Positions 9,791 through 46,964 of a DNA stretch of 64,000 nt are shown here, piece by piece. The stretch spans positions 25,410 through 89,409 of the forward strand of contig SCQF01000006.1 in NCBI GenBank assembly GCA_004321905.1. The letters are read 5' to 3'. The notes beneath the pieces are model-generated. The model had not been told where the DNA came from, did no database searches, and was given only the letters and a program-made list of their open reading frames with translations. A program made the translations under genes and the position numbers. How positions within the stretch are numbered: position 1 is the first letter of the stretch; each line of letters starts with the position of its first letter. The stretch is from Verrucomicrobiota bacterium (GTDB lineage Bacteria; Verrucomicrobiota; Kiritimatiellia; CAIQIC01).

Positions 9791-10882
9791 ATGGAAGCAA
9801 AAATCGTCAGAGTATTTCGGCATGATTTACTGGCGTGGTTTCGGCGGCATCGGCGGGCGTTGCCGTGGCGGACGCGGCGCACGCCCTATCGCGTCTGGAT
9901 TTCCGAGCTGATGCTTCAGCAGACCCGCGTCGAGCAGGCGCGCGATTATTTTCTGCGCTTTATGAAGCGGTTTCCAAATCTGAAAGCGCTGGCGGCGGCG
10001 AGTCAGCAGGACGTGCTCAAGCTCTGGGAGGGTCTCGGTTATTATTCCCGTGCTCGCCGTGCGCATCAGACGGCGCAATGGCTGATCGAAAAATGTAATG
10101 GGAAATTTCCGCGAACATTCGAGGGCCTGCTCGCGCTCCCGGGCATTGGGCCCTATACCGCGGCGGCGGTCGGCAGCCTCGCGTTCAACCTCGATGTGGC
10201 GGTGGTGGATGGCAACGTGGCGCGCGTGCTTTGCCGCGTGTTCGCCTTTGACGGCGATCCGCGCGGCGGGGCTGGCAAAAAAAAGTTGCAGGCCTGGGTG
10301 GATGAACTGCTGCCGCACGGTAGGGCCGGGGCATTCAACGAGTCGCTGATGGAACTTGGGGCACTCTGCTGTACGCCGCGCAAACCGGACTGCCCAAAAT
10401 GTCCACTGCTGAAAACATGCCAAGCCTATGCCGAAGGCCGACCGGAAAATTTTCCGACAAAAACTGCGAAGAAAAAGCTGCCGCACAAAATTGTCGGCGC
10501 GGGCGTGATCGTGAACCGGCACGGCGAATTTTTGATCGCGCAGCGGCACGAACACGAGATGCTCGGCGGGCTGTGGGAATTTCCGGGCGGCAAGCAGGAG
10601 CCGGGCGAAACGATGGAGCAGTGCATTGCCCGCGAATTACGCGAGGAACTTGGGATTCATGTCCGCGTCGGCCCGTGCCTGACAGTGGTGCACCACGCTT
10701 ACAGCCACTTTACGATTGCGCTGCACGCGCATTGGTGCCGGATCGAACGCGGGCGACCGCGGAATTTCCAATGCCTGGAAAACGCGTGGGTGCCCTTTTC
10801 CAAGCTTTGGAAAAAACCATTTTCCCGGGCGGATCTGCACATCATCACCGCGCTCCGCGGCGTGAAACCGCCGAAATTCTAA
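9791..10882 (+). CDS. mutY: A/G-specific adenine glycosylase MutY with C-terminal NUDIX (MutT-like) domain
   Basis: HhH-GPD region (LPGIGPYTAAAV), FeS cluster loop CxxxxxxCxxCxxxxxC, and a NUDIX box (GLWEFPGGKQEPGETMEQCIARELREELG). A degenerate palindromic element lies in frame at 10765-10818. Confidence 0.8.
   Translation: MEAKIVRVFRHDLLAWFRRHRRALPWRTRRTPYRVWISELMLQQTRVEQARDYFLRFMKRFPNLKALAAASQQDVLKLWEGLGYYSRARRAHQTAQWLIEKCNGKFPRTFEGLLALPGIGPYTAAAVGSLAFNLDVAVVDGNVARVLCRVFAFDGDPRGGAGKKKLQAWVDELLPHGRAGAFNESLMELGALCCTPRKPDCPKCPLLKTCQAYAEGRPENFPTKTAKKKLPHKIVGAGVIVNRHGEFLIAQRHEHEMLGGLWEFPGGKQEPGETMEQCIARELREELGIHVRVGPCLTVVHHAYSHFTIALHAHWCRIERGRPRNFQCLENAWVPFSKLWKKPFSRADLHIITALRGVKPPKF
10765..10818. 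repeat. degenerate paired palindromic element inside mutY CDS
   Basis: TTTCCAATGCCTGGAAAAC, 12-bp spacer, then CTTTTCCAAGCTTTGGAAAAAACC. In frame, where it encodes NFQCLENAWVPFSKLWKK. Confidence 0.65.
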
Positions 10883-10906
10883 GCCGACCCCCGGTTATAA
10901 CAGCGG

Positions 10907-11623
10907 TTAGAAGTGGTAGCGTGCGCTGATGCCGAAGCTCGCCTGATCGAAGTAGGTGAGCTGGCCGCCGAGTGAAAGGTTGTGCGAAAGATAGAGGTCC
11001 ACGCCGCCGACAGCACCGAGAAGTTTGTCTTCGCTGAAATCCGCGCTACCGGCGTGTCCGCTAAGTTTGGAAACCGCCGGGCCGCCATAGAGCACGAGGC
11101 TATAGGGATAGCTCTTGATGTCCTTCATTTTCTCAACGAAAAGTTCGTAGTTCAGCGTCAGGTCGGCATAGCCTTCGTTCCAGCGCCAGTCGTCGCCGGA
11201 GCGATACTGCGCGAACTCGGCGACGGTCTGGAAGCTCAAACGGCCTTCCATGAATTCCGGGTCGGTGATGTCGGTGTGCCACCAGTTGAGGCGTGTGCCG
11301 GCGGACCATTTGGCTTTGCCGGTGCCATAGTCGCCGCCGTCCCAACCGGCTTCGCTGCGGCCAAATGTGCCAAACACCATGCACCACGGTGTCAAATCCA
11401 CACCGAGTTGGGCCGAATAAACTTTGGTTTGTAACTGCGCGGTGCCGCCGCCATCGAGCGACACCTTGCGTTTGAGCATTTGATAGTCCACGCCGGCGCT
11501 GACGGGGCCGAGGCTCTCGGCTTCCGTGAGTGAATCGCGCATACCCGCACCGCCCAACGTGGCCGCCGAAGCCCAACCCGTGCTGCCGATTACCAACGCC
11601 GCCAAGAGCAATTTGCTTTTCAT
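10907..11623 (-). CDS. outer-membrane beta-barrel protein (signal peptide, C-terminal Phe)
   Basis: Start MKSKLLLAALVIGSTGWASA. Alternating amphipathic strands and a terminal ...ISARYHF. Confidence 0.45.
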   Translation of the reverse strand: MKSKLLLAALVIGSTGWASAATLGGAGMRDSLTEAESLGPVSAGVDYQMLKRKVSLDGGGTAQLQTKVYSAQLGVDLTPWCMVFGTFGRSEAGWDGGDYGTGKAKWSAGTRLNWWHTDITDPEFMEGRLSFQTVAEFAQYRSGDDWRWNEGYADLTLNYELFVEKMKDIKSYPYSLVLYGGPAVSKLSGHAGSADFSEDKLLGAVGGVDLYLSHNLSLGGQLTYFDQASFGISARYHF

Positions 11624-12516: not shown

Positions 12517-12538
12517 GGTTTTCCAAGGCTTGGAAAAA
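12517..12538. repeat. single palindromic element, upstream of crcB
   Basis: GGTTTTCCAAGGCTTGGAAAAA, between the M48 peptidase stop and the crcB start. Confidence 0.75.
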
Positions 12539-14903: not shown

Positions 14904-15290
14904 TTATGCTTGGTTGGCTCCCGGAAGTATCAGGCGGTTCAAACCCGCAGTAAGCATCGGCTCATGAAAGTTAATCAGTAAACCCAAGGGGACATCCATC
15001 ATTTTCATATAACTCAACACAACGGCTTTATGCACCGGCAAGATCGTCTCTACCGCCTTGAGCTCCACCAAAATATCCAACCGTAGCGCCTCCTCGAAAA
15101 CGCAGCCCTTGTATTCCAACGGAACTACAACTTGCTTTTCCGTAGGAATCTTCTGGAGTTCCAATTCTCGCAACAGACACTTCTCGTAGACGCTCTCCAA
15201 CAATCCGGGACCTACCGTTTTATGCACTTCGATGGCCGCACCAATTACCGCATGGCTCCATTGATCGGCCTTTTGGAACTTCGAATGCAT
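14904..15290 (-). CDS. GxxExxY family protein (PD-(D/E)xK-like)
   Basis: 128 aa with HAVIGAAIEVHKTVGPGLLESVYEKCL, the GxxExxY signature. Local GC is about 48% against about 63% in the flanks. Confidence 0.7.
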   Translation of the reverse strand: MHSKFQKADQWSHAVIGAAIEVHKTVGPGLLESVYEKCLLRELELQKIPTEKQVVVPLEYKGCVFEEALRLDILVELKAVETILPVHKAVVLSYMKMMDVPLGLLINFHEPMLTAGLNRLILPGANQA

Positions 15291-16723: not shown

Positions 16724-16743
16724 GTTTCCAAGGCTTGGAAAAG
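16724..16743. repeat. single palindromic element, upstream of gcvPA
   Basis: GTTTCCAAGGCTTGGAAAAG. Confidence 0.75.
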
Positions 16744-21137: not shown

Positions 21138-22688
21138 TCAAGCCCTCCTCCGCAGCCAAACCAAAAAGCCCAACACCGCCACCAACGCCGGCAGGCCGCC
21201 AATGGTGACCCACCCCAGCAAGCGCAGTTGGCTTTGATCCAACACCAAGCGATACTCCTCGACCGCCTTGGGCGCAATGGCCATCAATTCTTTGCGATCG
21301 AGCAGCCAATTCAGTGCGCTTTGCACCAGATCGGCGTTGCCGCCAATCAGCGCGCCATTGGCCAGAAAACTGGAATCGCCAAACACCACGAGCCGCATCG
21401 GCTTGATCTGCGTATCCAGCGCGCCCGGCGCCCCACCCTTCTCCACGGCCACCGCCACGCCCACCGGCCCTTTGTGATCCACGCCCGGATCGAAACGCAG
21501 CGGATTCTCGTTCGGATCAGTCTCGCCCCAGCCCTGCTCGGTACATTTGATGAGCGTCGTGACACGCGGCTTGTCCGGCGTGGCGTCCGCCCCCGGCGTC
21601 GCCTCCTCGATCGCCTCAACCGACCGCGGCAAATAAAGGATGGACGAAACACCGGTCAGCTTCTCAGTGATCGGATGGCGCTCATATTGCGTCACAAATA
21701 ATTCATTGCCGCTTAGCGTACGCGTCGGGTCCACCACCACATCGTCACCGACCTGCACGCCCCATTCCTTGAGTAACGGGGCCAGACCGGTGTCTGTCAG
21801 TGAGTCCAGCAGGAACAACACACGGCCGTTTTTGGTGATGAACTGCTTGACTTGCTCGACCTCCGCCGGCGCGAACCGCTTCTGCGGCCCGGCGATGACG
21901 AGCACATCGGCATCGGCGGGAATCGCTTTCTGCTCGCCCAGCGTCACTTTCGTGACCGTGGCATTATCGCGTTTGATCTCGCGGACCAGCGCGGAATAGC
22001 CCTTCGCCCGATCATAGCTCTCCGGATCGCGCTCACCATGGCCTTGCAGGAAATACACGGTGGGCACCTTCGCCTGCGTGATATTCAAGAGCGCCGAGGA
22101 GAACGCCTGCTCGCCCTTGAATCCGGTCTTGCGCGGCGGCGCGCCCATCTGCATCCCGGAATAATCCAGCTCCACGATGTCATCCGCCGTAACAAATTTA
22201 CTCCGCCCATTAGACTCGAACACCACCACGTTGGGCTTGCTGACCTGATACTTCTTCGCCAGCATTTCCGTTCGCGCCAAATCGCGGTCGGGGTCCACCT
22301 TCTGCACACGAATCAGCTTTGAAGCATCCTGATATTCCTTCAGCAGGTTATCCACATCCTCATAGATATCCTGTCCCGGCTGGAAGAACACGATGACGTC
22401 CACCGCGTTCGTCAAGCTTTTGAGCAAACCCTGCGTTTTGTCCGAAAGCTGATAGAGCTTGTTCCGGCTCACGTCGGTGTGCTGGTAGTGTCGGAAACTC
22501 ATGTAGTTGATCATCCCGAAGATCACGACCGCCAGCGTCAACGCGACACCGGTGTTCAGCGAGATGGCAAATTTGAGTTTACGGCTCTGGCGCGTGGATT
22601 TTTCGGCCGCCGATGCGCCGGGTTTCCCAGGGTTGGAAACCGTATCGCTCTGTTTTTCCAAGGCTTGGAAATTTTTGTTTTCCGTCAT
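21138..22688 (-). CDS. GldG-like ABC transport auxiliary component
   Basis: 516 aa with N- and C-terminal TM helices and the position directly after an ABC-2 permease and ABC ATPase. The N-terminal 30 codons (MTENKNFQALEKQSDTVSNPGKP) translate the palindromic element, so the true start is uncertain. Confidence 0.55.
   Translation of the reverse strand: MTENKNFQALEKQSDTVSNPGKPGASAAEKSTRQSRKLKFAISLNTGVALTLAVVIFGMINYMSFRHYQHTDVSRNKLYQLSDKTQGLLKSLTNAVDVIVFFQPGQDIYEDVDNLLKEYQDASKLIRVQKVDPDRDLARTEMLAKKYQVSKPNVVVFESNGRSKFVTADDIVELDYSGMQMGAPPRKTGFKGEQAFSSALLNITQAKVPTVYFLQGHGERDPESYDRAKGYSALVREIKRDNATVTKVTLGEQKAIPADADVLVIAGPQKRFAPAEVEQVKQFITKNGRVLFLLDSLTDTGLAPLLKEWGVQVGDDVVVDPTRTLSGNELFVTQYERHPITEKLTGVSSILYLPRSVEAIEEATPGADATPDKPRVTTLIKCTEQGWGETDPNENPLRFDPGVDHKGPVGVAVAVEKGGAPGALDTQIKPMRLVVFGDSSFLANGALIGGNADLVQSALNWLLDRKELMAIAPKAVEEYRLVLDQSQLRLLGWVTIGGLPALVAVLGFLVWLRRRA
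22621..22676. repeat. paired palindromic element at 5-prime end of GldG-like gene
   Basis: GGTTTCCCAGGGTTGGAAACC, 11-bp spacer, then TTTTTCCAAGGCTTGGAAATTTTT. Confidence 0.8.
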
Positions 22689-25796: not shown

Positions 25797-25878
25797 TTTG
25801 CGTTCAAAAATATTTTTTGCGTTCTCAACCGCCGCGGGGCTGGTATTATGCTGGTGAAGTTCAGGGAGTCAAGGGGCG

Positions 25879-27363
25879 ATGCGTGCCAAACACGAAGCAA
25901 AAATAGTGTCAGCCAAGGCTGTTCCAAGCCTTGGAAAAACCACCCTTCCCGTTTTCCAACCCTTGGAAAACAAAAAGGATTCTTGTGGGCGGGAGTTCCA
26001 ACTCCCGCGCCGAGAAGAACGAATCTTCTCTGAGCGACATCTACAATGTGTCTGGTTCGACGCCGAGCTGCGTCCGCCGAATCTCGTCACCGCGCAGGGC
26101 GAAGCGATTGAGGTCGAATCGCCCGGCGTCTGGAACCTCGAAGCCGGCCCGGATTTTCTCGGCGCGGCGTTGCGCCTTGGCCCGGAGCGCCGCCGCGTCA
26201 CCGGCGATGTCGAAATCCACATTCACCCCGCCGACTGGCAGGCGCACGGCCATAGCACCGAGCCGCGCTATGACCGCGTCCGCTTCCACGTCACGTTTTT
26301 TCCCGGCATCGCCGACTTACCGCCGAACGTCACGCACATTGCCTTACGCGACGCACTGGCCGCCCAACCACGCTTTGCTTTCGAGAGTATTGACCTGACC
26401 GCCTATCCGTATGGCGTGCGCTCGCCTGCCCCGCCCTGCGGTGTGGCGTTGCAAAACTGGACGCCCGACGACCGTGAAGCGTGGCTCGCTTCCGCAGGCG
26501 AAACTCGACTCCGCCAACGTGCCGAGCGAATCGCGCGCGCCATCGCGAAACGCGGGCCCGACCAAGTCATCTACGAAGAAGTCATGGCCGCACTCGGCTA
26601 CAAACAAAATCAGGGCGCGTTCCGACGCCTCGCCGAAGCGGTGCCGCTGGCGACGTTGCGCGCCGAAGCCAACGGCCAAGCCGACATCGCCTACGCCCTG
26701 CTCGCTGGCGTGGCCGGTCTGTTGCCCAGCCAACTCGCCGCCCGCATGGACGAGGAATCGCGCACGTTTGTGCGCGGCTTGTGGGATGCGTGGTGGAAAC
26801 GACGCGAGCGTTTTACCGGCGCTATACTCGCCGCCGATGCGTGGCGACTTTCCGGCCTGCGTCCGCTGAATCATCCACTGCGCCGGCTGGCCGCCGCGGC
26901 GGTACTTTTCACCGCACCGCGTTCGCTCGCCGAAGTCTGGACCGAACTGGCCGCAAAATTTCCCAACGATTGCCTGGCCCCTGCACACGCGCATCTGCTT
27001 GCCATGCGCCATCCGTTCTGGGATTACCACCTGACGCTGACCGGCAAGCGCACCGCTAAACCCACCGCGTTGCTTGGCGAAGCGCGCGCCGACGCGATTC
27101 TGATCAACGACTTTGTGCCGTTCCTCGCCGCACAACACAGCCGCGCAACGTTCGCCCCGGAACTGCTCGCACAGTTGCCAACGGAGCAAGATAACGCCGT
27201 GCTACGCGAAACCGCCTTCGCCCTGTTTGGTCGCGACGCACCAAACTCGCTCCTCCGCGACGGCCTCCGCCGCCAAGGCCTGCTCCACATCTTCCACACC
27301 TACTGCCTGAACGACCGCTCCCGCTGCGCCACCTGTCCTTTGCCGGACATGTTGCAGAAATGA
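25879..27363 (+). CDS. DUF2851 family protein
   Basis: 494 aa. ERHLQCVWFD...NLEAGPDFLGA... is characteristic of DUF2851. The N-terminal ~30 codons translate the palindromic element, so the start is uncertain. Confidence 0.5.
   Translation: MRAKHEAKIVSAKAVPSLGKTTLPVFQPLENKKDSCGREFQLPRREERIFSERHLQCVWFDAELRPPNLVTAQGEAIEVESPGVWNLEAGPDFLGAALRLGPERRRVTGDVEIHIHPADWQAHGHSTEPRYDRVRFHVTFFPGIADLPPNVTHIALRDALAAQPRFAFESIDLTAYPYGVRSPAPPCGVALQNWTPDDREAWLASAGETRLRQRAERIARAIAKRGPDQVIYEEVMAALGYKQNQGAFRRLAEAVPLATLRAEANGQADIAYALLAGVAGLLPSQLAARMDEESRTFVRGLWDAWWKRRERFTGAILAADAWRLSGLRPLNHPLRRLAAAAVLFTAPRSLAEVWTELAAKFPNDCLAPAHAHLLAMRHPFWDYHLTLTGKRTAKPTALLGEARADAILINDFVPFLAAQHSRATFAPELLAQLPTEQDNAVLRETAFALFGRDAPNSLLRDGLRRQGLLHIFHTYCLNDRSRCATCPLPDMLQK
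25920..25970. repeat. paired palindromic element, htrA / DUF2851 intergenic
   Basis: GTTCCAAGCCTTGGAAAAACC, 10-bp spacer, then TTTTCCAACCCTTGGAAAAC. Confidence 0.8.
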
Positions 27364-27372: not shown

Positions 27373-27391
27373 TTTCCGAGACTTGGAAATT
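27373..27391. repeat. single degenerate palindromic element downstream of DUF2851 gene
   Basis: TTTCCGAGACTTGGAAATT. Confidence 0.5.
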
Positions 27392-29600: not shown

Positions 29601-29662
29601 GGTAGGAGCCCGGCCCCGCCGGGCGATAACCCCCCAATCGCCCAGCGGGGCTGGGCTCCTAC
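29601..29662. repeat. GTAG-type REP-like long imperfect hairpin (left flank of RAYT)
   Basis: GTAGGAGCCCGGCCCCGCCGGGCGAT..ATCGCCCAGCGGGGCTGGGCTCCTAC is a near-perfect ~26-bp inverted repeat that begins with GTAG. Confidence 0.5.
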
Positions 29663-29714
29663 AAAGATTTGCTCTATTTCTCATCCCACCGTTCATAACC
29701 CAAAAAATTTCTGT

Positions 29715-30173: not shown

Positions 30174-30183
30174 AGCCTAGTTT

Positions 30184-30262
30184 GTAGGAGTCCTGCCCCG
30201 CAGGACGAACAGCAAAGATAACGCAAGCATATCGCCCGGCGGAGCCGGGCTCCTACCCAAAC
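30184..30262. repeat. GTAG-type REP-like hairpin (right flank of RAYT)
   Basis: GTAGGAGTCCTGCCCCGCAGGAC...ATCGCCCGGCGGAGCCGGGCTCCTAC shares the GTAGGAG/CTCCTAC termini with the 29601-29662 element. Confidence 0.45.
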
Positions 30263-30272
30263 ATATTCAATC

Positions 30273-31055: not shown

Positions 31056-31070
31056 CTGGTTCCTTTAAGT

Positions 31071-32642: not shown

Positions 32643-32716
32643 GGTTCACCTCCGGCGTCCACCGCCGGGCTTGTTCCGTCCGTTTTTAGTTGCACCGCCG
32701 CCGGGTGTTGCGCCGG

Positions 32717-32770
32717 TCTTCCAAGGCTTGGAAAACCCGGACGGTCGTTTTTCCAACCCTTGGAACTTTT
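32717..32770. repeat. paired palindromic element, rny / MTHFS intergenic
   Basis: TCTTCCAAGGCTTGGAAAAC, 10-bp spacer, then GTTTTTCCAACCCTTGGAACTTTT. Confidence 0.8.
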
Positions 32771-32792
32771 AGTTTCACGTCCGCGCACCCCG

Positions 32793-33398
32793 TCATGCGC
32801 GGAGATAAATTTCTTTTTCCGTCACCACGGCATCCATCAGCACATCGTGGGCTGCCACCGGCACGCGCGCCACAATCTGTACCGCAAAACCCAAGCCGAT
32901 TTTATAGGCAGCGAGACTTTCCAGCAAACGATCCAGCCACCCGCGACCGTGGCCGAGCCGGTGGCCCTTCGCATCAAACGCCAAGCCCGGAACCAGCGCC
33001 ACGTCCACGGTTTCCGGTTGTGCAACCCAGACCGGCTCGGCCGGTTCTGGAATCTGCAAACGGCCGGCCGCCAATATATCGTTGGCCGTCAGCCAGGCCA
33101 GCCGATAGCAGCCCGCGCGGTTGTCGAAGGCCGGCACGCACACCCGCTGGCCCAGCCGGTGGCAAGCGGTCAGGATCGGCGCGGTCTGCACTTCGCCCGG
33201 CAACGCCAGATAGAGCGCGATCACTTTTGCGCGGCGGAATTTTTCCAAGCCTTGGACGCGCTCCGCGATTTGCGCGCTCCACACCGCCACGTCGTCCAAA
33301 TTCAGTTGGGCACGAAGCGCGCGTGCCTCCGCCCGGACGGTCTTTTTTAACTGCTCTGTTCGGTTTGTTTTCGTGGTGTTTTCCTTAATGACTCCCAA
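32793..33398 (-). CDS. 5-formyltetrahydrofolate cyclo-ligase
   Basis: 201 aa, MTHFS-like (KVIALYLALPGEVQT, VPGLAFDAKGHRLGHGRGWLDR). Confidence 0.65.
   Translation of the reverse strand: MGVIKENTTKTNRTEQLKKTVRAEARALRAQLNLDDVAVWSAQIAERVQGLEKFRRAKVIALYLALPGEVQTAPILTACHRLGQRVCVPAFDNRAGCYRLAWLTANDILAAGRLQIPEPAEPVWVAQPETVDVALVPGLAFDAKGHRLGHGRGWLDRLLESLAAYKIGLGFAVQIVARVPVAAHDVLMDAVVTEKEIYLRA
33238..33257. repeat. single palindromic half-element inside MTHFS CDS
   Basis: AATTTTTCCAAGCCTTGGAC. In frame, where it encodes VQGLEKF. Confidence 0.6.
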
Positions 33399-34678: not shown

Positions 34679-34694
34679 CGCCTACTCCGCAAAG

Positions 34695-34905
34695 AAAAAA
34701 CCCCGCCTTGCCGTCAAGGGCATTGTCTTCTGAACCTCGAATATCGAGGTGGGTGCTCTACCGCTGGTTAAGGCAAGCAATGCAGCTTGCCGCCGCCACC
34801 GGATGCCGAGCTCCCAATGGAGTTAACCATGTAGGGTCAGAAGAATCGGCCCCGTCACGCACAAGGCAGGGTATCTTCGCCCAGAAGCCGCAACTTCAGG
34901 GAGAA
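34695..34905 (-). ncRNA. candidate structured ncRNA (possibly 6S/SsrS-like); identity unproven
   Basis: In the 490-bp non-coding gap between rarA and pheT, a ~36-nt imperfect long-range helix (34702-34737 with 34838-34875) encloses two perfect local hairpins (CCTCGAATATCGAGG and GGCAAGCAATGCAGCTTGCC). An MTHFS gene lies downstream on the same strand, the classic ssrS-ygfA linkage. Confidence 0.3.
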
Positions 34906-35140
34906 TCAAAGCCCCTCTGAAAAAGAACCACGGCCATAGGCCTCGCCCCAACGCTCCCGCAACCGGCGCTGACGCAACGCCCGCCGACCGGTGATGAACC
35001 GGCCCTCCGCTACGCACACGCGTGGATGCAAACCCCACGCCAGCACTGTCGCCAACAGGAACGCCAGCGGAACCATCATTTCAATCCATGTCATCAGCAT
35101 GGGACTTGTCTGCCTTGTAAATTTAACTTTTCCATACCGC

Positions 35141-35160
35141 CTTCCCACCCTTGGAAACCC
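35141..35160. repeat. degenerate palindromic element downstream of pheT
   Basis: CTTCCCACCCTTGGAAACCC. A weak match; only the TTGGAAA arm is intact. Confidence 0.3.
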
Positions 35161-35165
35161 TTGTT

Positions 35166-37577
35166 TCAACCTTCGCGGATTTCCACGCCCAGTTCCCGCT
35201 TCACGGCTTCCTTGACCCCCACATGATACCGGTTGGCGTCTTCATCTGTCAAGGTGCGATCCGCGGCGCGGTACGTGCAGGCGTAAGCCATGCTTTTCCG
35301 ACCCGCGCCCAAATTCCCACCATGGAATATATCGAATAATTCGACGTTTTCCAGTTCCGCCGGCGCGGCTTGGCGAACCACCCGCACCACATCTTCATGC
35401 TTGAGCGCATCGCTGGCGACCAGCGCCATGTCGCGGCGTATGGCAGGGAATTGCGCGATGGGCACCGCACGCGGCACGGCGAACACGTTCGCCAGTAACG
35501 GCGCGAGTTGCGCTTCGAGCACCGCCACCGGTGCGGTCAGCCGCCATTCACACGCAATACCGTGTTTGACGACGCCTAGCGCGCCAACTCCCACCCCATT
35601 CACCAACAACGCGACGGTGCAGCCCGGCTCGCCCCACGGCCGCTCCGCGACGCGGCATTCAGCTTTTTTCAATCCAAGCGCGACGGCGAGCGCTTCCCAG
35701 ACACCTTTGAGCCACAAGAAAATTTCATCGCTCTTGATCGGCAAATGCTTGTCGAGACCGGTACGACCAACCGGCCCCATCAGACCAATCGCCAAACGAT
35801 CCTCCTCGATCATCGCGCCGCTGGCGTCGAGCGCGAACACGCGACCGATTTCGAACAGCGCAGCCTCGGCGACCTGCCGCGCGTGGTTGCGACCCAGCGT
35901 CTCGACCATCTGCGGCACGAGCGAGTCGCGGAGGATCGCTTGATCGGCGCTGACCGGATTCGGAATCACCACACGGCGTGGCGCCGCCGCCGGATCGAAA
36001 AGATTGAGCAACCTCTCGGAAAGAAAACTATAGTTCAGCGTCTCGCGCAGGCCGAGACCGACAAGCGCACGCCGGCCCCATGCAATAGCTTGGGCCGGAC
36101 GATCATCCACGCCGGGCACGAGAATCGCGCGCGGCGCCGGCGCGGGGATTTGATCGAGGCCATGAATGCGCGCGACTTCTTCAACGAGGTCAATCTCACG
36201 CTCCAGATCGCGGCGAAACGTCGGTATACCCACCGCATACGCACCATTTTCCAAGCTTTGGACGGACATTTCCAAGCCTTGGAAAATCGCCCGAATCTGT
36301 TCGTCGGAAATTTCCAAACCCGTCCGGTCACGGATGTAATCGCCGCGACAATGCAACACGCGCGGCGGCGCCGGCTGGGCATAAAGATCGAGGACACCCG
36401 GCGCACACGTCGCACCGGCCAATTCCGTCATCAGCATCACGGCACGGCGGCTCGCCCAATCAACTGTGGCCGGGTTCACCCCGCGCTCAAACCGATAAGA
36501 CGATTCCGTGGAAAGGCCCAAGCTACGCGCCGTGGTGCGAACATCGGAGGGCTTGAACGCGGCACCCTCCAAGAGCACCGTCGTGGTCGCAGGGCGAATT
36601 TCGCTGTTGCCGCCACCCATCACACCAGCAACGGCGACCGCTTGCCGGGCATCGGCAATGACGAGCGTCGTTGGGTTCAATTCGCGTTCGACGCCATCAA
36701 GCGTTTTCATCTTCTCACCGGCGCGCGCACGACGAACAACAATCCGGCCTTCCGCGAGTAGCGTCTGATCGAACGCGTGCAGCGGGTGTCCGCACTCGAG
36801 CATGACGTAATTGGTGATATCCACGACGTTGTTGATCGCACGAATACCGGCGAGTTCCAGCCGCTTTTGCATCCACGTGGGCGATGCCCCCATCTTCACG
36901 CCATGCAGAATGCGTGCGGTGTAACGCGGACAGCCTTCGGCCTCTTCAACCACGACATGCGTCAACTCGGCCACCGGTTTGCCGGATTCGGCGAGCTTGA
37001 TCTCCGGTATGCGAAGTTTCGTGCCGTAGAGCGCGGCGACTTCGCGTGCGATGCCGATCAGACTCAAACAGTCGGGCCGATTCGGCGTCACTTCCAGTTC
37101 GAGTACGGTTTCCGGCGCGCCGAGGACTTCGGCAATCGGTGTGCCGGGGGCCCACTTGGCATCGAGTTCCAACAGGCCGGCATGATCCTTCGAGAGGCCG
37201 AGTTCGTCCGGCGCGCAAAGCATACCTTCGGAAAAAACACCGCGAATCTTGGCTTTTTTCAGTGTCAGCCCATTCGGCAGCGTCACGCCCGACGGCGCAA
37301 ACAGCGCCTTCAGGCCGACGCGCGCATTCGGCGCGCCGCACACCACCACGAGTTGGCCCGCGCCATGATTGACGGTGCACAGCGTCAGTTTGTCGGCGTT
37401 CGGATGACGCTCCACTTGGAGAATTTCGCCAACGACGATGCCCTTCGCATCGCAGCCGATGGTTTCGAGGTGCTCGACCTCCAAGCCGGAAAAGGTCAGC
37501 TTCGCCGCCAACCCTTGGGGCGTATCGGCAAAATCCACATAATCCTTCAGCCAACTGATCGGTACACGCATGTCCAT
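35166..37577 (-). CDS. pheT: phenylalanine--tRNA ligase beta subunit
   Basis: 803 aa with tRNA-binding OB, B3/B4, B5 and FDX-ACB domains (MDMRVPISWLKDYVD...). Two adjacent palindromic half-sites lie in frame at 36247-36288. Confidence 0.9.
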   Translation of the reverse strand: MDMRVPISWLKDYVDFADTPQGLAAKLTFSGLEVEHLETIGCDAKGIVVGEILQVERHPNADKLTLCTVNHGAGQLVVVCGAPNARVGLKALFAPSGVTLPNGLTLKKAKIRGVFSEGMLCAPDELGLSKDHAGLLELDAKWAPGTPIAEVLGAPETVLELEVTPNRPDCLSLIGIAREVAALYGTKLRIPEIKLAESGKPVAELTHVVVEEAEGCPRYTARILHGVKMGASPTWMQKRLELAGIRAINNVVDITNYVMLECGHPLHAFDQTLLAEGRIVVRRARAGEKMKTLDGVERELNPTTLVIADARQAVAVAGVMGGGNSEIRPATTTVLLEGAAFKPSDVRTTARSLGLSTESSYRFERGVNPATVDWASRRAVMLMTELAGATCAPGVLDLYAQPAPPRVLHCRGDYIRDRTGLEISDEQIRAIFQGLEMSVQSLENGAYAVGIPTFRRDLEREIDLVEEVARIHGLDQIPAPAPRAILVPGVDDRPAQAIAWGRRALVGLGLRETLNYSFLSERLLNLFDPAAAPRRVVIPNPVSADQAILRDSLVPQMVETLGRNHARQVAEAALFEIGRVFALDASGAMIEEDRLAIGLMGPVGRTGLDKHLPIKSDEIFLWLKGVWEALAVALGLKKAECRVAERPWGEPGCTVALLVNGVGVGALGVVKHGIACEWRLTAPVAVLEAQLAPLLANVFAVPRAVPIAQFPAIRRDMALVASDALKHEDVVRVVRQAAPAELENVELFDIFHGGNLGAGRKSMAYACTYRAADRTLTDEDANRYHVGVKEAVKRELGVEIREG
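36247..36288. repeat. two abutting palindromic half-elements inside pheT CDS
   Basis: TTTTCCAAGCTTTGGAC and ATTTCCAAGCCTTGGAAAATC with no spacer between them. In frame, where they encode FQGLEMSVQSLENG. Confidence 0.7.
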
Positions 37578-37582
37578 TCCTC

Positions 37583-39043
37583 GTGAAAAAGCGGCGGCAG
37601 TCTAACGGCTTTCCGCGCCAGATTCAATCGCGGCGCAAATCCGCTGACATCCGACGCTGTTCCCGCTATCTTCGGCCTGTGCCCGAACCACTTCAGCCAC
37701 CTACGCCACTGCTCACCAAAGGCAGCTTGCTGCGCTCGCTGCATCGGCTGGCGATGCCGATGCTGATTGGCGCGGTGCTTAGTAATCTGCAAAGCGTCAT
37801 CAACCTATTTTGGGTGGGGCATCTCGGCGCGAATGCCATCGCGGCGGTCGCGGTAGGCGGCACCATTTTGATGTTGCTGTTCCCGGCGCTGATGGGACTT
37901 TCCACCGGCACGGTAGCGCTGGTGTCGCGCGCCATTGGCGGCGGGCAGCGCGCGGATGCTTCGGCCGCGGCAGGCCAATCGCTGCTGCTCGCGTTGATCT
38001 TCGGCGGCCTGTCCGGCGCGATCGGCTGGCACTATGCCGACACCCTCGCGCGCCTGCTCGGCGTGGAAGCGGCGGTGTTGCCGGACGCCGAAGCCTATCT
38101 GCGGATCAACATGGTTTTCAGCTTCACGCTCTACCTGCAAGTCATCGGTGCGGCCGCCTTGCAAGGCGCGGGCGACGCACGCACGCCGATGTGGGCGGGC
38201 GTCACCGAAAACATTCTTAACATCGTGCTCGACCCACTGCTGATCTACGGCCTCGGCGGCTTCCCGCGGCTCGGCGTCCCCGGCGCGGCGTGGGCTTCGA
38301 TGCTCGCGCAGACCGTCGCCGCAACGATGGTGGTGCGCGGGCTGTTCGCCGAGCGCGCCGCCGTACGCATCGGCTGGCACGAATGGCGCCCCAACCTGAA
38401 ACTAGCCTGGCGCATTCTACGCATCGGCCTGCCCGGCTCCGGCCAAATGCTCACGCGCAGCGTGATGGGCGCGGTGCTGATGCGCATCGTCGCCGGTTGC
38501 GGCACGGCCGCGGTGGCGGCCTATGGTACCGGCCTACGCATCCACATGATCGTGCTCATGCCGGCCTTTTCGCTCGGCGGTGCGGCAGCGACACTTGTCG
38601 GTCAAAATCTCGGCGCGGGCAAACCGGGGCGCGCCCGCGCCGCCGCCTGGCTCGCCACCGGCCTCGACCTGATCTTCATGTTCATCGCGATTTTCGTGAT
38701 GATGACGTTCGCGCCGCATCTCATGCGCCTGTTCAATCACGACCCGGACGTGATCCAAATTGGCGTCGGCTACATGCGCACCGTTTCACCTTTTTATGTT
38801 TTCGCGGCGCTTGGCATCGTGCTCGGACGCGGACTGAACGGCGCAGGCGATACGTTCGGCCCAATGGTCTGTACGATCCTCGCGCTCTGGGGTCTGCAAG
38901 TACCGCTCGCAATCTGGCTGGCGAAAATCGTGCTACCGGCGACGCAAGGCATTTGGTGGGCCATCGGCGCCGCCAGCCTCGCGCACGGCTTGATGATCAC
39001 CGCGTGGTTCGAGGTTGGCCGTTGGAAAAACAGGAAAGTTTGA
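37583..39043 (+). CDS. MATE family efflux transporter
   Basis: 12 TM helices, LRSLHRLAMPMLIGAVLSNLQ... The true start is probably downstream (TTG at 37727 or ATG at 37751), because the first codons overlap the divergent pheT start. Confidence 0.8.
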   Translation: MKKRRQSNGFPRQIQSRRKSADIRRCSRYLRPVPEPLQPPTPLLTKGSLLRSLHRLAMPMLIGAVLSNLQSVINLFWVGHLGANAIAAVAVGGTILMLLFPALMGLSTGTVALVSRAIGGGQRADASAAAGQSLLLALIFGGLSGAIGWHYADTLARLLGVEAAVLPDAEAYLRINMVFSFTLYLQVIGAAALQGAGDARTPMWAGVTENILNIVLDPLLIYGLGGFPRLGVPGAAWASMLAQTVAATMVVRGLFAERAAVRIGWHEWRPNLKLAWRILRIGLPGSGQMLTRSVMGAVLMRIVAGCGTAAVAAYGTGLRIHMIVLMPAFSLGGAAATLVGQNLGAGKPGRARAAAWLATGLDLIFMFIAIFVMMTFAPHLMRLFNHDPDVIQIGVGYMRTVSPFYVFAALGIVLGRGLNGAGDTFGPMVCTILALWGLQVPLAIWLAKIVLPATQGIWWAIGAASLAHGLMITAWFEVGRWKNRKV

Positions 39044-39046: not shown

Positions 39047-39100
39047 TTTTCCAAGGCTTGGAAAATCAATCGGCTATCTTTTCCAACGCTTGGAAAAACC
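39047..39100. repeat. paired palindromic element, MATE / prepilin convergent intergenic
   Basis: CTTTTCCAAGGCTTGGAAAATC, 10-bp spacer, then TCTTTTCCAACGCTTGGAAAAACC. It lies immediately before the bidirectional terminator. Confidence 0.8.
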
Positions 39101-42740: not shown

Positions 42741-42793
42741 TTTTCCAAGGCTTGGAAAGGCTGATCGCTCGTTTTTCCAACCCTTGGAAAAAG
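42741..42793. repeat. paired palindromic element, LptE-like / hydG convergent intergenic
   Basis: TTTTCCAAGGCTTGGAAAGG, 10-bp spacer, then GTTTTTCCAACCCTTGGAAAAAG. Confidence 0.8.
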
Positions 42794-42797: not shown

Positions 42798-44360
42798 TCA
42801 AAAATACAAATCGCGCTCACCTTGGCAAATCCGTTCGTAGGATTTCATAAACTCGTCAAAGGCGCGCGGCATCTTCTGGCGAACTTCCTCAATTTCCTTT
42901 TTGAGGAGTGGCTCGCCGGCGGCGCGGGTCGCATCGCTGGCAAAATCGTCGAGCCATTCACGGAATGTCAAAATCGCGTTCAACTTGCAGAACTTGCCTT
43001 CCGCACCGCTACGCAGCAAATCCATGATGCAGTGGCCGGTGCGCCCGCAACGGTAGCCCGCCGTGCAAAAACTGGTGATGTTACCCATCGCCGCGAGGTC
43101 GCGAACGACCTCATCCAGCGTGCGCGTGTCGGCCAGCAAAAACTGCTGGCGGTCGCCGTGCTGTTCTTCATCCTGATAACCGCCGACGCCGATATTCGAG
43201 GACGCGTCCGTCTGCGTGCAGCCCAGCGGCAGCAGGCGCCGACGCATGCCGGGATTCTCACGACAGGTGACGATCATGCCGGCATAGGGCACGGCCAACC
43301 GCAGCACGACGACAACTTTCTCAAAATCTTCGTCGCTGACCTGCCAGCGTAACGACTCATTGAACGGCGTATTCGCCGCCGGCTCAAGCCGTGGAAAACT
43401 GACCGTATGCGGACCGATGCCGAGCGCACGCTCCAACTCCAGCGCATGCGCCACCAACCCCATGACCTCGAAGCGCCAGTCATAAAGTCCAAACAGTGCG
43501 CCGATGCCCACATCCTCAATACCCGCTTCCAACGCGCGGTGCATCGTGTAGAGCCGCCAGCGGTAGTCACTCTTGAGCGTGCCCGCCGGATGCACGGCAC
43601 GATAGGTCGCTTTATGATAGGTCTCTTGGAAAACCTGATAAGTCCCCACCCCGATCGCCGGCAGTTCGCGCAATTCCTCGGTCGGCATTGGTGCGGCGTT
43701 GATGTTGACGCGCCGAATTTGGCCGTGACCACGCCGCGCCGGCACCTTAACACCGTAGACCGCGCGAATGGACTCCTGCATATACTTCAAATCGCTGCGC
43801 GGATGTTCGCCATACACCACAATCAACCGCTTGTGGCCAATCTTACCGGCGAGCACCTCGGTCTCGGCGCGGATTTCGTCCATCGTCAACGTTCGCCGCT
43901 CCACCACGTCATTTTCGCAGCGCAGGCCACAATAGAGGCAGTTATTGACGCACGCGTTGCTCAAGTAAAGTGGCGCAAACGTGACGATGCGGTTGTCGTA
44001 TACCGTGTGCTTGATCTCCGCCGCCGCCTGCCGCATCTCGGCCCAGAGTTCCGGGTCTTTGACGGCCAACAGCGCCGCCGTTTCATCGAGGTCGAGCGAC
44101 TGGATCGCCTTGGCCTTCGCAATGATCTCACGAACTCGCGCCGCGTCTGGTTGCGCGGTCATCCGAATTTTGGAATCAATCAGCTCATCGTCAATAAAGT
44201 CGCGTCCGTTCTGCAGATACTTCTCCATCTGCTCCGGTACAATCCGGCGCTCCCGCCACTCATGAGCGCTCTGTTTCTCCACAATCGCCGTCATATTTCC
44301 GTGTCCTTCCGTGTGTTCCGTGGTTTCAAATTCAATTTTGTTGTGCACGCTCATAGGCAT
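42798..44360 (-). CDS. hydG: [FeFe]-hydrogenase maturase HydG (radical SAM tyrosine lyase)
   Basis: Radical-SAM CxxxCxxC (CVNNCLYCG) in a ThiH/HydG-like N-domain, plus a C-terminal Cys-rich extension (FCTAGYRCGRTGHC...FCK) absent from ThiH. Adjacent to hydF. The start is ambiguous (ATG at 44429, 44360 or 44294); 44360 is used here. Confidence 0.7.
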   Translation of the reverse strand: MPMSVHNKIEFETTEHTEGHGNMTAIVEKQSAHEWRERRIVPEQMEKYLQNGRDFIDDELIDSKIRMTAQPDAARVREIIAKAKAIQSLDLDETAALLAVKDPELWAEMRQAAAEIKHTVYDNRIVTFAPLYLSNACVNNCLYCGLRCENDVVERRTLTMDEIRAETEVLAGKIGHKRLIVVYGEHPRSDLKYMQESIRAVYGVKVPARRGHGQIRRVNINAAPMPTEELRELPAIGVGTYQVFQETYHKATYRAVHPAGTLKSDYRWRLYTMHRALEAGIEDVGIGALFGLYDWRFEVMGLVAHALELERALGIGPHTVSFPRLEPAANTPFNESLRWQVSDEDFEKVVVVLRLAVPYAGMIVTCRENPGMRRRLLPLGCTQTDASSNIGVGGYQDEEQHGDRQQFLLADTRTLDEVVRDLAAMGNITSFCTAGYRCGRTGHCIMDLLRSGAEGKFCKLNAILTFREWLDDFASDATRAAGEPLLKKEIEEVRQKMPRAFDEFMKSYERICQGERDLYF

Positions 44361-45582
44361 CGCGCGCCGCCGGAAACGGCGAAAGCGCCCGCTGGAGCAC
44401 GCCCTGCGTCGCCGAAATCGCCAGCCCATAGTTTGTGATCGCCACGCCCTGCGCCTGTGCGCGCTGAATGTGCGCGAGCATCTCGCGCCGCGTTAGCATG
44501 CACGAACCGCAGTGCACCACTAACTTGTAGCCGGTCAGGTCCTGCGGAAAATCGCGGCCCGCGCTCACGTCAATCTGTACGTCGAGGCCGGTGTATTGCC
44601 GCAGCCAGCGCGGAATTTTCACCCGCCCGATGTCATCCTCCAGCGCATGATGGCTGCACGACTCGGCCACGAGCACGCGGTCGCCCGCGCGTAGTCGGTC
44701 AATCATCGCCGCGCCACGCGCCAACTCCTGCAAGTCGCCCTTATAGCGCGCGAACAGGATCGAAAACGTGGTGCACTTCACATCGTTCGGTGTATCGGCG
44801 ACCATCTTCAGCACGACCTGCGAATCACAGACGACCAAATCCGGCGGGCAGTTCAGGCGACCGAGCAGCGCCGCATATTCGCGTTCCTTGACCACGAGCG
44901 CGGCGGCATCGCCATCGAGCGCGTCGCGGAGCGCCTGCACCTGTGGCAAAATCAGCCGGCCTTTTGGCGCCTGCAAATCAATCGGCACCACCATCACCAT
45001 CAGCCCACCCGGCGGCAACAGATCGGCGACCAGCGCCGGCGGATTCACATAATCATCCGGGCACGCCTTGAGCAGCAGTTCCTTGAACCGACAGACCACG
45101 CGCTCGCGCCGCGCCGCATCCAGACACGAACATTCCAGCCAGCCGGCGCACTTTTCCAAGGCCTGGAAAAAGGCCGGGACCGGTTTTCCAAGGCTTGGAA
45201 GATCGGTTTTGTTCACCACGACGATCACCGGCTGTTTGCGCTGCGCAGCCGCGGCCACGACGCGCTCCTCGAACTCGCCCCACTGGCCCGGCTCGGTCAG
45301 CAGCGCGACAATATCGGCGCGGTCGAGTGCGGCGGCCGTTTTTTGCAGGCGGCGTTCGGCCAATTCAGATTGGTCGTCAAGTCCAGCGGTGTCGAGGAAC
45401 GTCACCGGCCCGATAGGCAACAGCTCCATCGCTTTCTCGACTACATCGGTCGTCGTGCCCGGTACCGGCGAGGTCACCGCGACATCCTGCCCGGCAACGT
45501 AATTCAGGAAGCTGGACTTCCCGACGTTCGTCCGCCCGACGAGGCCAATTTGCAACCGCAAAGCTTTAGGCGTCGTCAGCAT
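44332..45582 (-). CDS. hydF: [FeFe]-hydrogenase maturation GTPase HydF
   Basis: N-terminal GTPase (GRTNVGKSSFLNYV, DTAGL, NKTD) and a C-terminal FeS-binding signature CxH...HCxxC (ESCSHH ... VVHCGSCML). An in-frame paired palindromic element at 45151-45204 encodes PSLGKPVPAFFQALEK. Confidence 0.8.
   Translation of the reverse strand: MLTTPKALRLQIGLVGRTNVGKSSFLNYVAGQDVAVTSPVPGTTTDVVEKAMELLPIGPVTFLDTAGLDDQSELAERRLQKTAAALDRADIVALLTEPGQWGEFEERVVAAAAQRKQPVIVVVNKTDLPSLGKPVPAFFQALEKCAGWLECSCLDAARRERVVCRFKELLLKACPDDYVNPPALVADLLPPGGLMVMVVPIDLQAPKGRLILPQVQALRDALDGDAAALVVKEREYAALLGRLNCPPDLVVCDSQVVLKMVADTPNDVKCTTFSILFARYKGDLQELARGAAMIDRLRAGDRVLVAESCSHHALEDDIGRVKIPRWLRQYTGLDVQIDVSAGRDFPQDLTGYKLVVHCGSCMLTRREMLAHIQRAQAQGVAITNYGLAISATQGVLQRALSPFPAARDAYERAQQN
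45151..45204. repeat. paired palindromic element inside hydF CDS
   Basis: CTTTTCCAAGGCCTGGAAAAAGG, 9-bp spacer, then GTTTTCCAAGGCTTGGAAGATC. In frame, where it encodes PSLGKPVPAFFQALEK between the GTPase and FeS domains. Confidence 0.8.
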
Positions 45583-46964
45583 CTTTCTTTTTCCCGATAG
45601 CCCAGCGCCGTCAGATTTTCCGGCGAGAGCGTCTGCTCCACAATGGCGCGGCCCAATTTCCCGATCAAAAATGCTCGCAAGTCGTTCCCACCGTCAGCAT
45701 TGAATTCGCCGAACCACCGCTGCGCCTGCTCGTAGCCGATGCGCGGCAGAAACGCATTGATTAACGCGCGGCTGTGATCGAGATGGCGGCGGCAGGCAGC
45801 GGCAGCGGCGGTGATGCCGGCCACATGCGACGCGAGCATTTCTGCCGCGTTCTTGAGCAACGCAATTTGATCGAGCAGCGACGCGGCCAGTAGCGGCAGG
45901 TACTCGTTGATCTGGAGTGTGCCGCTTGCGGCGACCTCGGCCACGAGTGCACCCGCGGCCCGGGCCTGCATGCCGGCCTGTACCGTGGCCTCGGCGATCA
46001 CCGGGTTGATCTTACCGGGCATGAGGCTTGAACCGGCCTGCACCGGCGGCAGGCGAATTTCGCCGAGCATGTGTAGCAGCCGCAAGTCACGCGCGATCTT
46101 GATGAAGTTCGCGGCACAGGCGTTCAGAATACCGGCAACCTCGGCAAAGCAATCGGCATTCGCGGTCGCATCCACTAGATTTTCCGCGCGCGTCAGACCG
46201 AGCCCGCTGACCTCGCGGAGTTTTTCGATGACGAGAAAGATATAACTACGCGACGCGGTCAGCCCGGTACCAAGGGCGGTGCCGCCAAGGTTGACCACGC
46301 GCAGGCGTTCCTCGGCCTTGAAGGTGCGCCAGCGGTCGCGCGCGAACGCCTCGGCGAAAGCGGAGAACTCCGCGCCCATCGTCATCGGCACCGCGTCCTG
46401 CATTTCCGTACGGCCCAATTTGACGATACCCGAAAATTCTTTTTCCTTTTTCTGAAATGCGCCCTGGAGCGTCGCCAGCGCTGCACTCAATTCACGCAGC
46501 CCGAAAATCGCTGCGACTTTGAGCGCGGTCGGATAAACGTCGTTCGTGGACTGGTGCAGATTGACATCCTCGATCGGATGCAATTTTGCGTAGTCGCCAC
46601 GCATCGCGCCCAACAGTTCCAGCGCGCGATTGGCGATGACCTCGTTGAGGTTCATGTTCGTCGAGGTGCCCGCCCCACCCTGCAAAGCGTCGAGCGGAAA
46701 TTGGTCGGCGTGCTGGCCGGCGACGATCTCGTCACACGCACGGCAGATCGCGTCACACTTTTCCAAACCTTGGAAACCGAGTTCGCGGTTGGCCAGTGCA
46801 CAGGCTTTCTTCACCTGCGCCAGCGCACGAACCAGCGCCGGCGATACCACGCGACCGCTAATCCGGAAGTTAGCCAGCGCTCGCGCGGTATGGATGCCGT
46901 AAAGCGCATCGGACGGTATGGCGAGTTCGCCCAATAAATCGTGTTCTGTGCGGAAATTAGCCAT
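45576..46964 (-). CDS. aspartate ammonia-lyase / class II fumarase family protein
   Basis: 462 aa with the GSSxMPxKxN lyase signature (GSSLMPGKINP). The N-terminus aligns with AspA. An in-frame single palindromic half-element lies at 46758-46779 (GFQGLEK). Confidence 0.8.
   Translation of the reverse strand: MANFRTEHDLLGELAIPSDALYGIHTARALANFRISGRVVSPALVRALAQVKKACALANRELGFQGLEKCDAICRACDEIVAGQHADQFPLDALQGGAGTSTNMNLNEVIANRALELLGAMRGDYAKLHPIEDVNLHQSTNDVYPTALKVAAIFGLRELSAALATLQGAFQKKEKEFSGIVKLGRTEMQDAVPMTMGAEFSAFAEAFARDRWRTFKAEERLRVVNLGGTALGTGLTASRSYIFLVIEKLREVSGLGLTRAENLVDATANADCFAEVAGILNACAANFIKIARDLRLLHMLGEIRLPPVQAGSSLMPGKINPVIAEATVQAGMQARAAGALVAEVAASGTLQINEYLPLLAASLLDQIALLKNAAEMLASHVAGITAAAAACRRHLDHSRALINAFLPRIGYEQAQRWFGEFNADGGNDLRAFLIGKLGRAIVEQTLSPENLTALGYREKERC
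46758..46779. repeat. single palindromic element inside AspA-like CDS
   Basis: CTTTTCCAAACCTTGGAAACCG. In frame, where it encodes GFQGLEK. Confidence 0.7.

Follow-up and report, generated by a model that had tools for sequence, protein, structure and literature searches.

Palindromes and their host genes

A short palindrome with the core TTCCAAGSCTTGGAA and the extended form TTTTCCAAGSCTTGGAAAA recurs throughout the 64-kb stretch of contig SCQF01000006.1 from an uncultured, freshwater, Kiritimatiellota-like Verrucomicrobiota bacterium of the PVC group (in the following, the window, i.e. the whole stretch that was analysed), where it is found between genes and, read in frame, inside them. On the basis of Pfam assignments, the host genes are miaA (1-792, minus strand), mutY (9791-10882, plus), MTHFS (32793-33398, minus), pheT (35166-37577, minus), hydF (44332-45582, minus) and Lyase_1 (45576-46964, minus), the lyase being part of the conserved TM1266-like–lyase–HydF–HydG cluster; a GldG-like gene (21138-22688, minus) and a DUF2851 gene (25879-27363, plus) carry copies towards their 5′ ends. 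A sequence-only reading of the same DNA had described a 51-bp pair unit present in frame in essential genes, some copies being insertions and others conversions of existing sequence. The pair unit, the quoted peptides (VPSLGK..FQASE, FQCLE..FSKLWK, LPSLGK..FQALE, FQGLE/VQSLE, FQGLE and VQGLE) and the hosts are confirmed by motif scan and Pfam, and the elements are in frame in genuine genes, of which, however, only pheT is clearly essential.

The motif is over-represented, strictly phased and accompanied by a DNA-level bias at synonymous sites. The unit is 15-19 bp long, and 36 matches to TTCCAAGNCTTGGAA with at most two mismatches are found in the window, to be compared with 0.16 expected and a maximum of 3 in dinucleotide-preserving shuffles; the resulting density of ~0.56 per kb is an over-representation at uptake-sequence-like frequency. 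Fourteen pairs are present, each with a start-to-start distance of exactly 32 bp, besides a doublet in pheT with a distance of 21 bp. Runs of T and A in the flanks lengthen each unit to the 19-bp palindrome TTTTCCAAGSCTTGGAAAA, and the pair spans 51 bp. A metagenome scan, in which three consecutive perfect units were the query, returned 41 contigs, mostly from the hypolimnion of Trout Bog Lake; in the 286 kb made up of metagenome contigs and the window, units lie close together at two distances only, 31 bp in 32 cases and 32 bp in 118. Across motif-bearing contigs the arrays reach 5 units, and a G or C occupies the centre of 274 of the 277 units.

The density of the palindrome in non-coding DNA of the window is ~12 times that in coding DNA. 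Twenty units are intergenic and occupy co-directional, divergent and convergent contexts alike, including the inside of ribosomal protein operons, while 10 are well inside six genes, with two each in miaA, mutY, hydF and pheT and one each in Lyase_1 and MTHFS. Placement is far from random, 10 of 14 inter-pair gaps measuring 2.4-3.7 kb and two more ~6.7 kb. A function as terminator or promoter was rejected, because ribosomal protein operons contain pairs and because intergenic regions of every orientation (divergent, convergent and co-directional) have them. The elements were also distinguished from clustered regularly interspaced short palindromic repeats (CRISPR) by their arrays of at most 5 units, repeats of 15-19 bp, spacers of ~13-17 bp and dispersed sites; no cas domains turned up in Pfam scans of the window. 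An Rfam scan of the window returned 6S RNA and one tRNA only, and no family at the elements.

Insertion or substitution inside genes

How the palindrome came to lie within coding sequence was examined gene by gene against orthologs. In mutY, a complete pair (10766..10812, 32 bp) encodes the peptide FQCLENAWVPFSKLWK at residues 325-342 of the NUDIX-like domain, and no indel is found across it in an alignment of 25 sequences extending down to 57% identity, the window having GRPRNFQCLENAWVPFSKLWKKPFSRADL where orthologs have, e.g., GRPRAIHCADFAWVKPAELRKYPFSRADL. The invariant residues C328 and W333 fall within the element, and the centre of the first half is TGC, so that the invariant Cys is retained. 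The two units of pheT, 21 bp apart (36249..36284; FQGLEMSVQSLE, residues 432-443 of the B5 domain), also lie in an alignment free of indels (28 sequences), IFQGLEMSVQSLE standing opposite VFEALELSVVSPG and ILESLGL; in the related loci L001-L003 and, as FQTLE, in the Pontiellaceae L020/L021, the word occupies these same codons. In the lyase of the hyd cluster, the single unit (46761..46775, FQGLEK, residue 64) reads ELGFQGLEKCDAI opposite ELGFLPIEKCDAI, ELGFQTAAKADAI and ELGHLPADKAAAI, again with no indel. The single unit of MTHFS (33243..33257, VQGLEK, residues 48-53) is confined to the window lineage, GTC CAA GGC TTG GAA AAA being found opposite GTC CAG ACG CTG GAC GCT of L001 and L003 with no true gap. 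The length-neutral conversion that had been proposed for pheT and the lyase (termed AspA-like at the time) is thus upheld, and it extends to the complete pair of mutY and to MTHFS.

[quoted passage not shown] The hydF pair (45154..45200, 32 bp; peptide LPSLGKPVPAFFQALEK, residues 128-144) is nearly length-neutral: NKTDLPSLGKPVPAFFQALEKCAGWLECSC of the window compares with NKTDLKA---PSEDFLxxIxxxxxxVILCSS in orthologs with 65-72% identity, a difference of +3/-1, so that only 2-3 residues are added, and the length is identical to that of the motif-poor relative L083 (DLLHDGKEAAIFSKSLEKTA). Thermotoga HydF structures exhibit a net 5-residue difference over ~400. The claimed gain is therefore refuted for hydF, and conversion is, on these alignments, the rule.

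The case of miaA is less simple. Its pair (202..248, 32 bp; peptide VPSLGKSDGSDFQASE, residues ~181-197) is found in a linker that ranges from ~16 to >50 residues among orthologs and is hypervariable in all lineages. Insertion is favoured by a linker that exceeds that of distant orthologs by ~15 residues and by a spacer matching the canonical array spacer, its position weight matrix score of 11.8 (null 95th percentile 10.5) being the highest among gene-internal pairs and the second overall. However, pair-bearing MiaA orthologs that lack a second insert are only ~4-5 residues longer than pair-free ones, and the other 11 extra residues of the window protein (AVSGQPSAVSR) are encoded by a tandemly duplicated 14-bp sequence, ggctgaccgctgac, two copies of which (~165-195) lie beside the pair. 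Thus, the extra length noted earlier is real, but only ~4-5 residues of it go with the pair, for which a real unit insertion may have taken place. Other MiaA orthologs contain different repeat-derived inserts in the same linker (e.g. ...GVLECWSNGKE...).

Insertion would also be favoured by the genuine in-frame inserts that relatives carry at the hydF and miaA hot spots, but these are other sequences, namely GTAG-type repetitive extragenic palindromes (REPs), a 36-bp insert and tandem duplications. The 36-bp insert lies in frame exactly at the centre of half-site 2 of hydF (FFQ, then PSLARRAALGCQ, then PLEK) in L082 (10383-10465), P0006 and P0009, and a GTAG-REP-like insert, SPDGGRRPPLQK, is found just downstream in the HydF of P0006 and P0008; the palindrome centre may be a preferred breakpoint. 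No target-site duplication accompanies the palindromes. Overall, the analogy with RPE and Correia elements fails on its defining feature, added length: the alignments already refute insertion of this kind in hydF, mutY, pheT, the lyase and MTHFS, and as a general account it is very improbable, whereas the same comparisons demonstrate an origin by substitution for the copies of mutY, pheT, the lyase and MTHFS and, essentially, also for that of hydF.

AlphaFold models built from the ortholog alignments place neither the mutY nor the hydF pair in a disordered linker. In the predicted mutY product the pair is part of the NUDIX-like domain, where it takes up a loop, an ordered strand (328-335) and a helix (336-341); the predicted local distance difference test (pLDDT) values are 87-92. 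In that of hydF it corresponds to a loop and a helix (136-142), with pLDDT values of 80-84, between G4 (NKTD, 124-127) and G5 (C151/S152), so that the pair belongs within the GTPase domain and not, as had been proposed, to the linker that joins it to the FeS domain.

Pressure at the DNA level

The firm coding sequence, 51 kb in all, contains 10 matches with at most two mismatches. When synonymous codons were shuffled with the proteins kept fixed, the mean was 1.45 matches and the maximum 5, none of 300 shuffles reaching 10; shuffling of codon order gave 0.29 matches. Therefore, synonymous choice and amino-acid sequence are both bent toward the word, and the synonymous-site bias that the sequence-only reading had proposed as a check is present.

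The course of these changes can be followed by ordering relatives from distant to close and counting, codon by codon, the mismatches over the 14 specified motif positions. Overall, distant relatives have 7-10 mismatches, and the number decreases in steps through 5-7 to 0-2 in close ones. The series is 7, 6, 5, 1 and then 2 in the window for the first half of the mutY pair, 8, 8, 7, 2, 1 for its second half, 7, 7, 0 for the first half of the hydF pair, and 8 and 6, then 1, for MTHFS. Changes toward the motif are both synonymous (CAG>CAA, CTG>TTG or CTT, TTC>TTT, AAG>AAA) and replacing (L>F, D>E, A>S, R>W, A>K); at constrained protein positions it is the motif that deviates instead.

Three frames of the palindrome are read, namely FQxLE, PSLGK and FSKxWK, the two halves of a pair being in different frames because 32 mod 3 = 2. 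The PSLGK frame rests on rare codons (CCA 9%, CTT 8%, GGA 5%), and all four gene-internal single units or doublet halves are in the common-codon frame FQxLE or VQxLE. Selection on the peptides themselves is ruled out by the use of three frames and of rare codons.

Directional changes at synonymous and non-synonymous positions alike, in a palindromic word with a strictly G/C centre, are also what would be expected of biased mismatch repair, or of a methyltransferase-linked process, by which near-cognate sequences are converted without selection on the function of the site. Such a process leaves the 31/32-bp phasing, the arrays and the 12-fold intergenic enrichment unexplained, and a specificity over 14 positions far exceeds that of the very-short-patch repair systems known to us. 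No methyltransferase turned up in a general Pfam scan of 48 window open reading frames (ORFs), a scan that was not aimed at methyltransferases. Biased DNA repair is a named candidate neutral process for the cyanobacterial highly iterated palindrome HIP1 (PMC5861425), for which a methyltransferase link has also been described (PMC4390886); for the present palindrome we consider a process of either type scarcely probable.

Gain and loss among relatives

The window MutY is 100% identical to the protein of a 'Verrucomicrobia bacterium' metagenome-assembled genome (MAG). The closest PheT loci are those of lake MAGs labelled Lentisphaerae (79-85% identity), followed by a tier at 52-58% labelled Kiritimatiellia, Verrucomicrobiota or Spartobacteria, and by Pontiellaceae at ~51%; synteny with L001-L003 covers 24436-37619 of the window. 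L001, L081, L082 and L086 all carry the motif. In L002 it has a 31-bp period and arrays of 4, the more distant L004 has the variant TTCCAATSATTGGAA in 31-bp arrays, and the Pontiellaceae L020/L021 contain single TTCCAANNNTTGGAA words. In L088, a distant member of the Kiritimatiellia whose MutY is 64% identical, the 3′ end of mutY is overlapped by an array of four units (11069-11176; period 31 bp), and the protein ends with ...IVQCLEKWSGDFPSIGKN, a C-terminal extension that results from reading into the array. The motif is nearly absent from L083 and L085 (one assembly, with HydF 86% and MutY 80% identical; 1 match in 25.8 kb), and also from L003, L084 and L087. The comparison of these loci thus documents that sites are gained and lost among relatives.

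Lineage variants of the word (including the 31- versus 32-bp periods) and its loss in close relatives such as L083/L085 and L003 are in keeping with an uptake-signal-like molecular drive, in which a DNA-uptake or recombination machine would prefer the palindrome and site-improving mutations would spread through biased transformation without the cell gaining from it, as proposed for the uptake signal sequences (USS) and DNA uptake sequences (DUS). The density of ~0.56 per kb agrees with it, too, and so does the coding footprint, i.e. substitution, tolerant residues and a common-codon frame for single units, as in USS (PMC2817400). Against it stands the 12-fold intergenic bias, which exceeds that of USS, the same source giving 34.5-65% of uptake sequences in ORFs. 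Furthermore, known uptake sequences are asymmetric and lack strictly phased arrays. Drive of this kind is, on balance, unlikely, but it is the explanation to be taken most seriously after the one preferred below.

Arrays, hairpins and the resident transposase gene

The 14 window pairs show no visible conservation of spacers or outer flanks, and no target-site duplications were seen. Spacers are nevertheless weakly related, 3.7% of spacer pairs sharing at least 8 of 11 core bases, versus 0.35% in the null; with a profile from metagenome arrays, the null 90th percentile is exceeded by 4 of the 14 spacers in the window, which is too weak to assign an origin beyond a hint for miaA. Four-unit arrays (L090, L091, L100, L117, L125 and other Trout Bog contigs) often have a symmetric P-A-P-B-P-A'-P layout, the stretch of ~111 bp being a long imperfect palindrome. 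ORFs that read through the metagenome arrays are mostly non-coding frames or gene junctions.

Position-specific spacer types and the overall dyad symmetry of arrays, together with the strong intergenic bias, recall the REP doublets known as REPINs and the bacterial interspersed mosaic elements (BIMEs), i.e. selfish, hairpin-forming, non-autonomous units copied by a domesticated transposase, the coding copies then being rare by-products. Pairs are predicted to fold into stems of 15-19 bp, and orthologous copies are vertically inherited, as is the case for REPINs (PMC3116915). A transposase gene of the REP-associated tyrosine transposase (RAYT) type is also available in the window: a canonical REPIN-RAYT module (29602-30256) consists of a 152-aa Y1_Tnp (RAYT-like) gene, at 29715-30173 on the minus strand, with inverted doublets of the classical GTAG-type REP GTAGGAGCCCGGCCCCGCCGGGCGA on both sides, and L001-L003 lack this ~720-bp block where synteny would place it. 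It is, however, this different REP, and not the palindrome, by which the gene is flanked in the 64-kb window, and for this reason the RAYT was discarded as mobiliser of the palindrome.

Hairpin formation makes a prediction that can be checked at the centre of the unit, which is the sole freely variable position. Adjacent units have complementary centres 80 times and identical ones 85 times (P=0.76); this lack of a preference for complementarity gives no sign of selection on pairing between units, and no covariation between neighbours was found in these counts. The absence of target-site duplications and conserved flanks is a further difficulty, and the zero-indel copies of mutY, pheT, the lyase and MTHFS are impossible by transposition. 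A REPIN- or BIME-like element is therefore regarded as rather improbable, even less so supported than the drive discussed above.

Other sites in the window

The remaining sites are intergenic or at the borders of genes. Within the longest priA ORF, the pair at 7408..7454 lies upstream of the true start, ATG 7503, as judged from alignment with the L087 PriA N-terminus, and is not coding; a second pair (7010..7056) is found in the divergent intergenic region between a P-type ATPase gene and priA. This region also contains the tRNA gene (7273-7345, minus strand), which is flanked by the two pairs. In L087 (MutY 77% identical), a 342-aa Y1_Tnp gene is located directly upstream of priA (1-1030), where the window has its two pairs; the L087 contig contains no palindrome copies.

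The GldG-like pair (22624..22670) corresponds to residues 7-22 of an N-terminal tail, the transmembrane helix beginning near residue 40, and is probably translated, because ATG 22688 is preceded by a GAGG Shine-Dalgarno sequence and there is no other plausible start before the transmembrane helix. Exclusion of the element by the true gene start, a possibility that the sequence-only reading had raised for this gene, is thus improbable. The DUF2851 ORF has a pair at its 5′ end (25922..25968) for which coding is uncertain, the start being either ATG 25879 or a TTG within half-site 2; the equivalent array of L002 is outside the ORF. A single unit (27374..27388) follows the DUF2851 stop.

Between the PTS_EIIA2 stop and the pheS start, a pair is found at 3362..3408, one half-site of which adjoins the pheS ATG. 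The start codon of pheS directly adjoins this half-site (TTGGAAAATG, 3358-3376), and the GGA of the palindrome may act as ribosome-binding site. Single units are located in the gap that separates the M48 peptidase stop from the crcB start (12521..12535) and just upstream of gcvPA (16726..16740), the latter gene being separated from gcvPB, the other glycine-cleavage P-protein gene, by a gene of the PD-(D/E)XK nuclease family (PDDEXK_3, 14904-15290). The pair between MTHFS and rny (32719..32765) is orthologous in L001 (32 bp) and L002 (31 bp) and decayed in L003. A degenerate single unit (35142..35156) is found just after the pheT stop, and the 6S RNA gene (85 bits) occupies 34696-34875 on the minus strand, between mgsA/rarA and pheT. 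Further pairs are intergenic after the MatE stop (39049..39095), between the convergent lptE and hydG (42743..42789), between rplQ and a C26 peptidase gene (48131..48177), between the cistrons rpsM and rpsK (51127..51173) and upstream of rplE in the ribosomal protein operon (57799..57845).

A proposed phased site for a DNA-binding factor

The explanation that we favour, with some confidence though well short of certainty, is that the palindromes are phased sites for a putative factor that binds double-stranded DNA, and that they have entered genes by directional substitution. The palindrome would be a cis site read as double-stranded DNA by a sequence-specific, probably dimeric factor, to which the perfect palindrome with its G/C centre, the three-turn period, the lack of hairpin covariation and the occurrence in all contexts would all point. 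The 31-32-bp register would correspond to three helical turns, so that neighbouring sites would be on the same face of the helix and could be bound cooperatively, as pairs or short arrays. Most sites would be intergenic, and those inside tightly packed genes would have been built there by stepwise point substitution for want of intergenic room. Cramped surroundings are exemplified by mutY, which is followed by a gap of 24 bp, and by the 5.3-kb overlapping hydG–hydF–lyase–TM1266–C26 block. During this process, synonymous positions would be recruited first, tolerant residues changed, and constrained residues kept at the price of a deviating motif.

Selection for binding predicts both that sites improve step by step and that, as in mutY and hydF, a further half-site arises at a distance of exactly 32 bp, but an uptake-like drive predicts this equally. 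On the preferred explanation the agent would be a DNA-binding protein, and selection for its binding, rather than drive, would fix the changes.

Several observations weigh against this explanation. No candidate binding protein was identified. The regular pair spacing of the window (~3.2 kb) is absent in 15 other motif-bearing contigs, with a coefficient of variation of 0.86 compared with 0.89 for random placement. In 17 site-by-relative comparisons, the identity of sites is 82% and that of flanks 79%, with no clear excess, and these comparisons therefore do not establish purifying selection on the sites. Each pair is predicted to fold as a long RNA hairpin (-17 to -27 kcal/mol, with the 15-19-bp stems mentioned above). 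Finally, the resemblance among spacers and the dyad symmetry of arrays hint that intergenic copies may spread as units instead of arising one by one.

Comparison with known systems and significance

No paper describing the motif emerged from the literature search on it, the sole string match being an unrelated miR-145 cancer paper. It had been suggested that conversion toward a motif within coding sequence, side by side with insertion, was undescribed, but DNA uptake sequences (PMC2817400) and HIP1 (PMC5861425) accumulate in coding sequence. In USS/DUS, coding copies alter peptide composition, fall on poorly conserved residues and adopt a frame that follows codon preference (PMC2817400). The present element resembles them in being a short word, which in USS/DUS reaches hundreds to thousands of copies per genome, and in that related lineages have variants of it or lack it; it differs in being a perfect 15-19-bp palindrome, in its strict 31-32-bp pairs and arrays and in being much more intergenic. 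With HIP1 (GCGATCGC, cyanobacteria) it shares a hyper-abundant palindromic word inside and between ORFs and maintenance at the DNA level, but HIP1 is 8 bp long, lacks phased arrays and is abundant inside genes. Furthermore, HIP1 sites are conserved within ORFs, with a proposed role in chromosome structure and a function that is not known (PMC5861425), whereas here the sites show no clear excess conservation (82% versus 79%).

RPEs are palindromic repeats readable in frame within protein-coding genes (PMC10969869), and in this respect they and the Correia/NEMIS (Neisseria miniature insertion sequence) MITEs are similar to the palindromes described here. RPEs, however, are ~150-bp insertions adding a conserved peptide, where the present copies add no residue, or 2-3 in hydF; unlike RPE and Correia elements, moreover, they have no target duplications, barely conserved spacers and no shared whole-length sequence with terminal inverted repeats. 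The REP/BIME/REPIN families are alike in their palindromic doublets, mostly intergenic position and vertical inheritance and, perhaps, in mosaic arrays with linker types (PMC3116915 and PMC5581495). The present elements are set apart from REP/REPIN-RAYT systems by the lack of a 5′ GTAG, the perfect palindromy of each unit, the fixed three-turn period, the lack of covariation, the 10 units placed by substitution well inside six genes and a resident RAYT flanked by another REP.

As to geometry, palindromes arranged in twos with their centres 31-32 bp apart, as suits cooperative binding on one face, are also a feature of operators of the NrdR type, which, however, are found at few promoters, while here there are ~0.5 sites per kb in every genomic context. 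NrdR boxes were reportedly described by Rodionov & Gelfand in 2005 as tandem palindromic operators three helical turns apart.

The best reading of the behaviour in coding sequence is that it is a phenomenon of the USS/HIP1 kind, not an RPE-like insertion. More broadly, and with rather more reserve than the binding of a factor itself calls for, the freshwater Kiritimatiellota-like bacteria could possess an undescribed genome-wide system of phased palindromes for a cooperative DNA-binding or DNA-processing factor, kept under a pressure that would suffice to rewrite codons, complete 32-bp pairs included, in conserved and structured parts of MutY, PheT and HydF. It might then be the third independent case of co-evolution between a DNA word and the proteome, after USS/DUS and HIP1, and the first with an array geometry.

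The practical consequence is that repeats of this kind mislead the annotation of MAGs, in which they give rise to spurious 'conserved peptides' (FQALEK, PSLGK, FSKxWK) and cause start codons to be misplaced. The three-turn phasing predicts a cooperative binder, and L083/L085 and L003, close relatives from which the word has been lost, are a natural contrast for finding the responsible gene. If the proposed explanation is true, the palindromes would provide a second palindromic system, independent of cyanobacteria, for asking what hyper-abundant words do, and would mean that substitution alone allows a non-coding DNA signal to overwrite ordered regions in housekeeping proteins.

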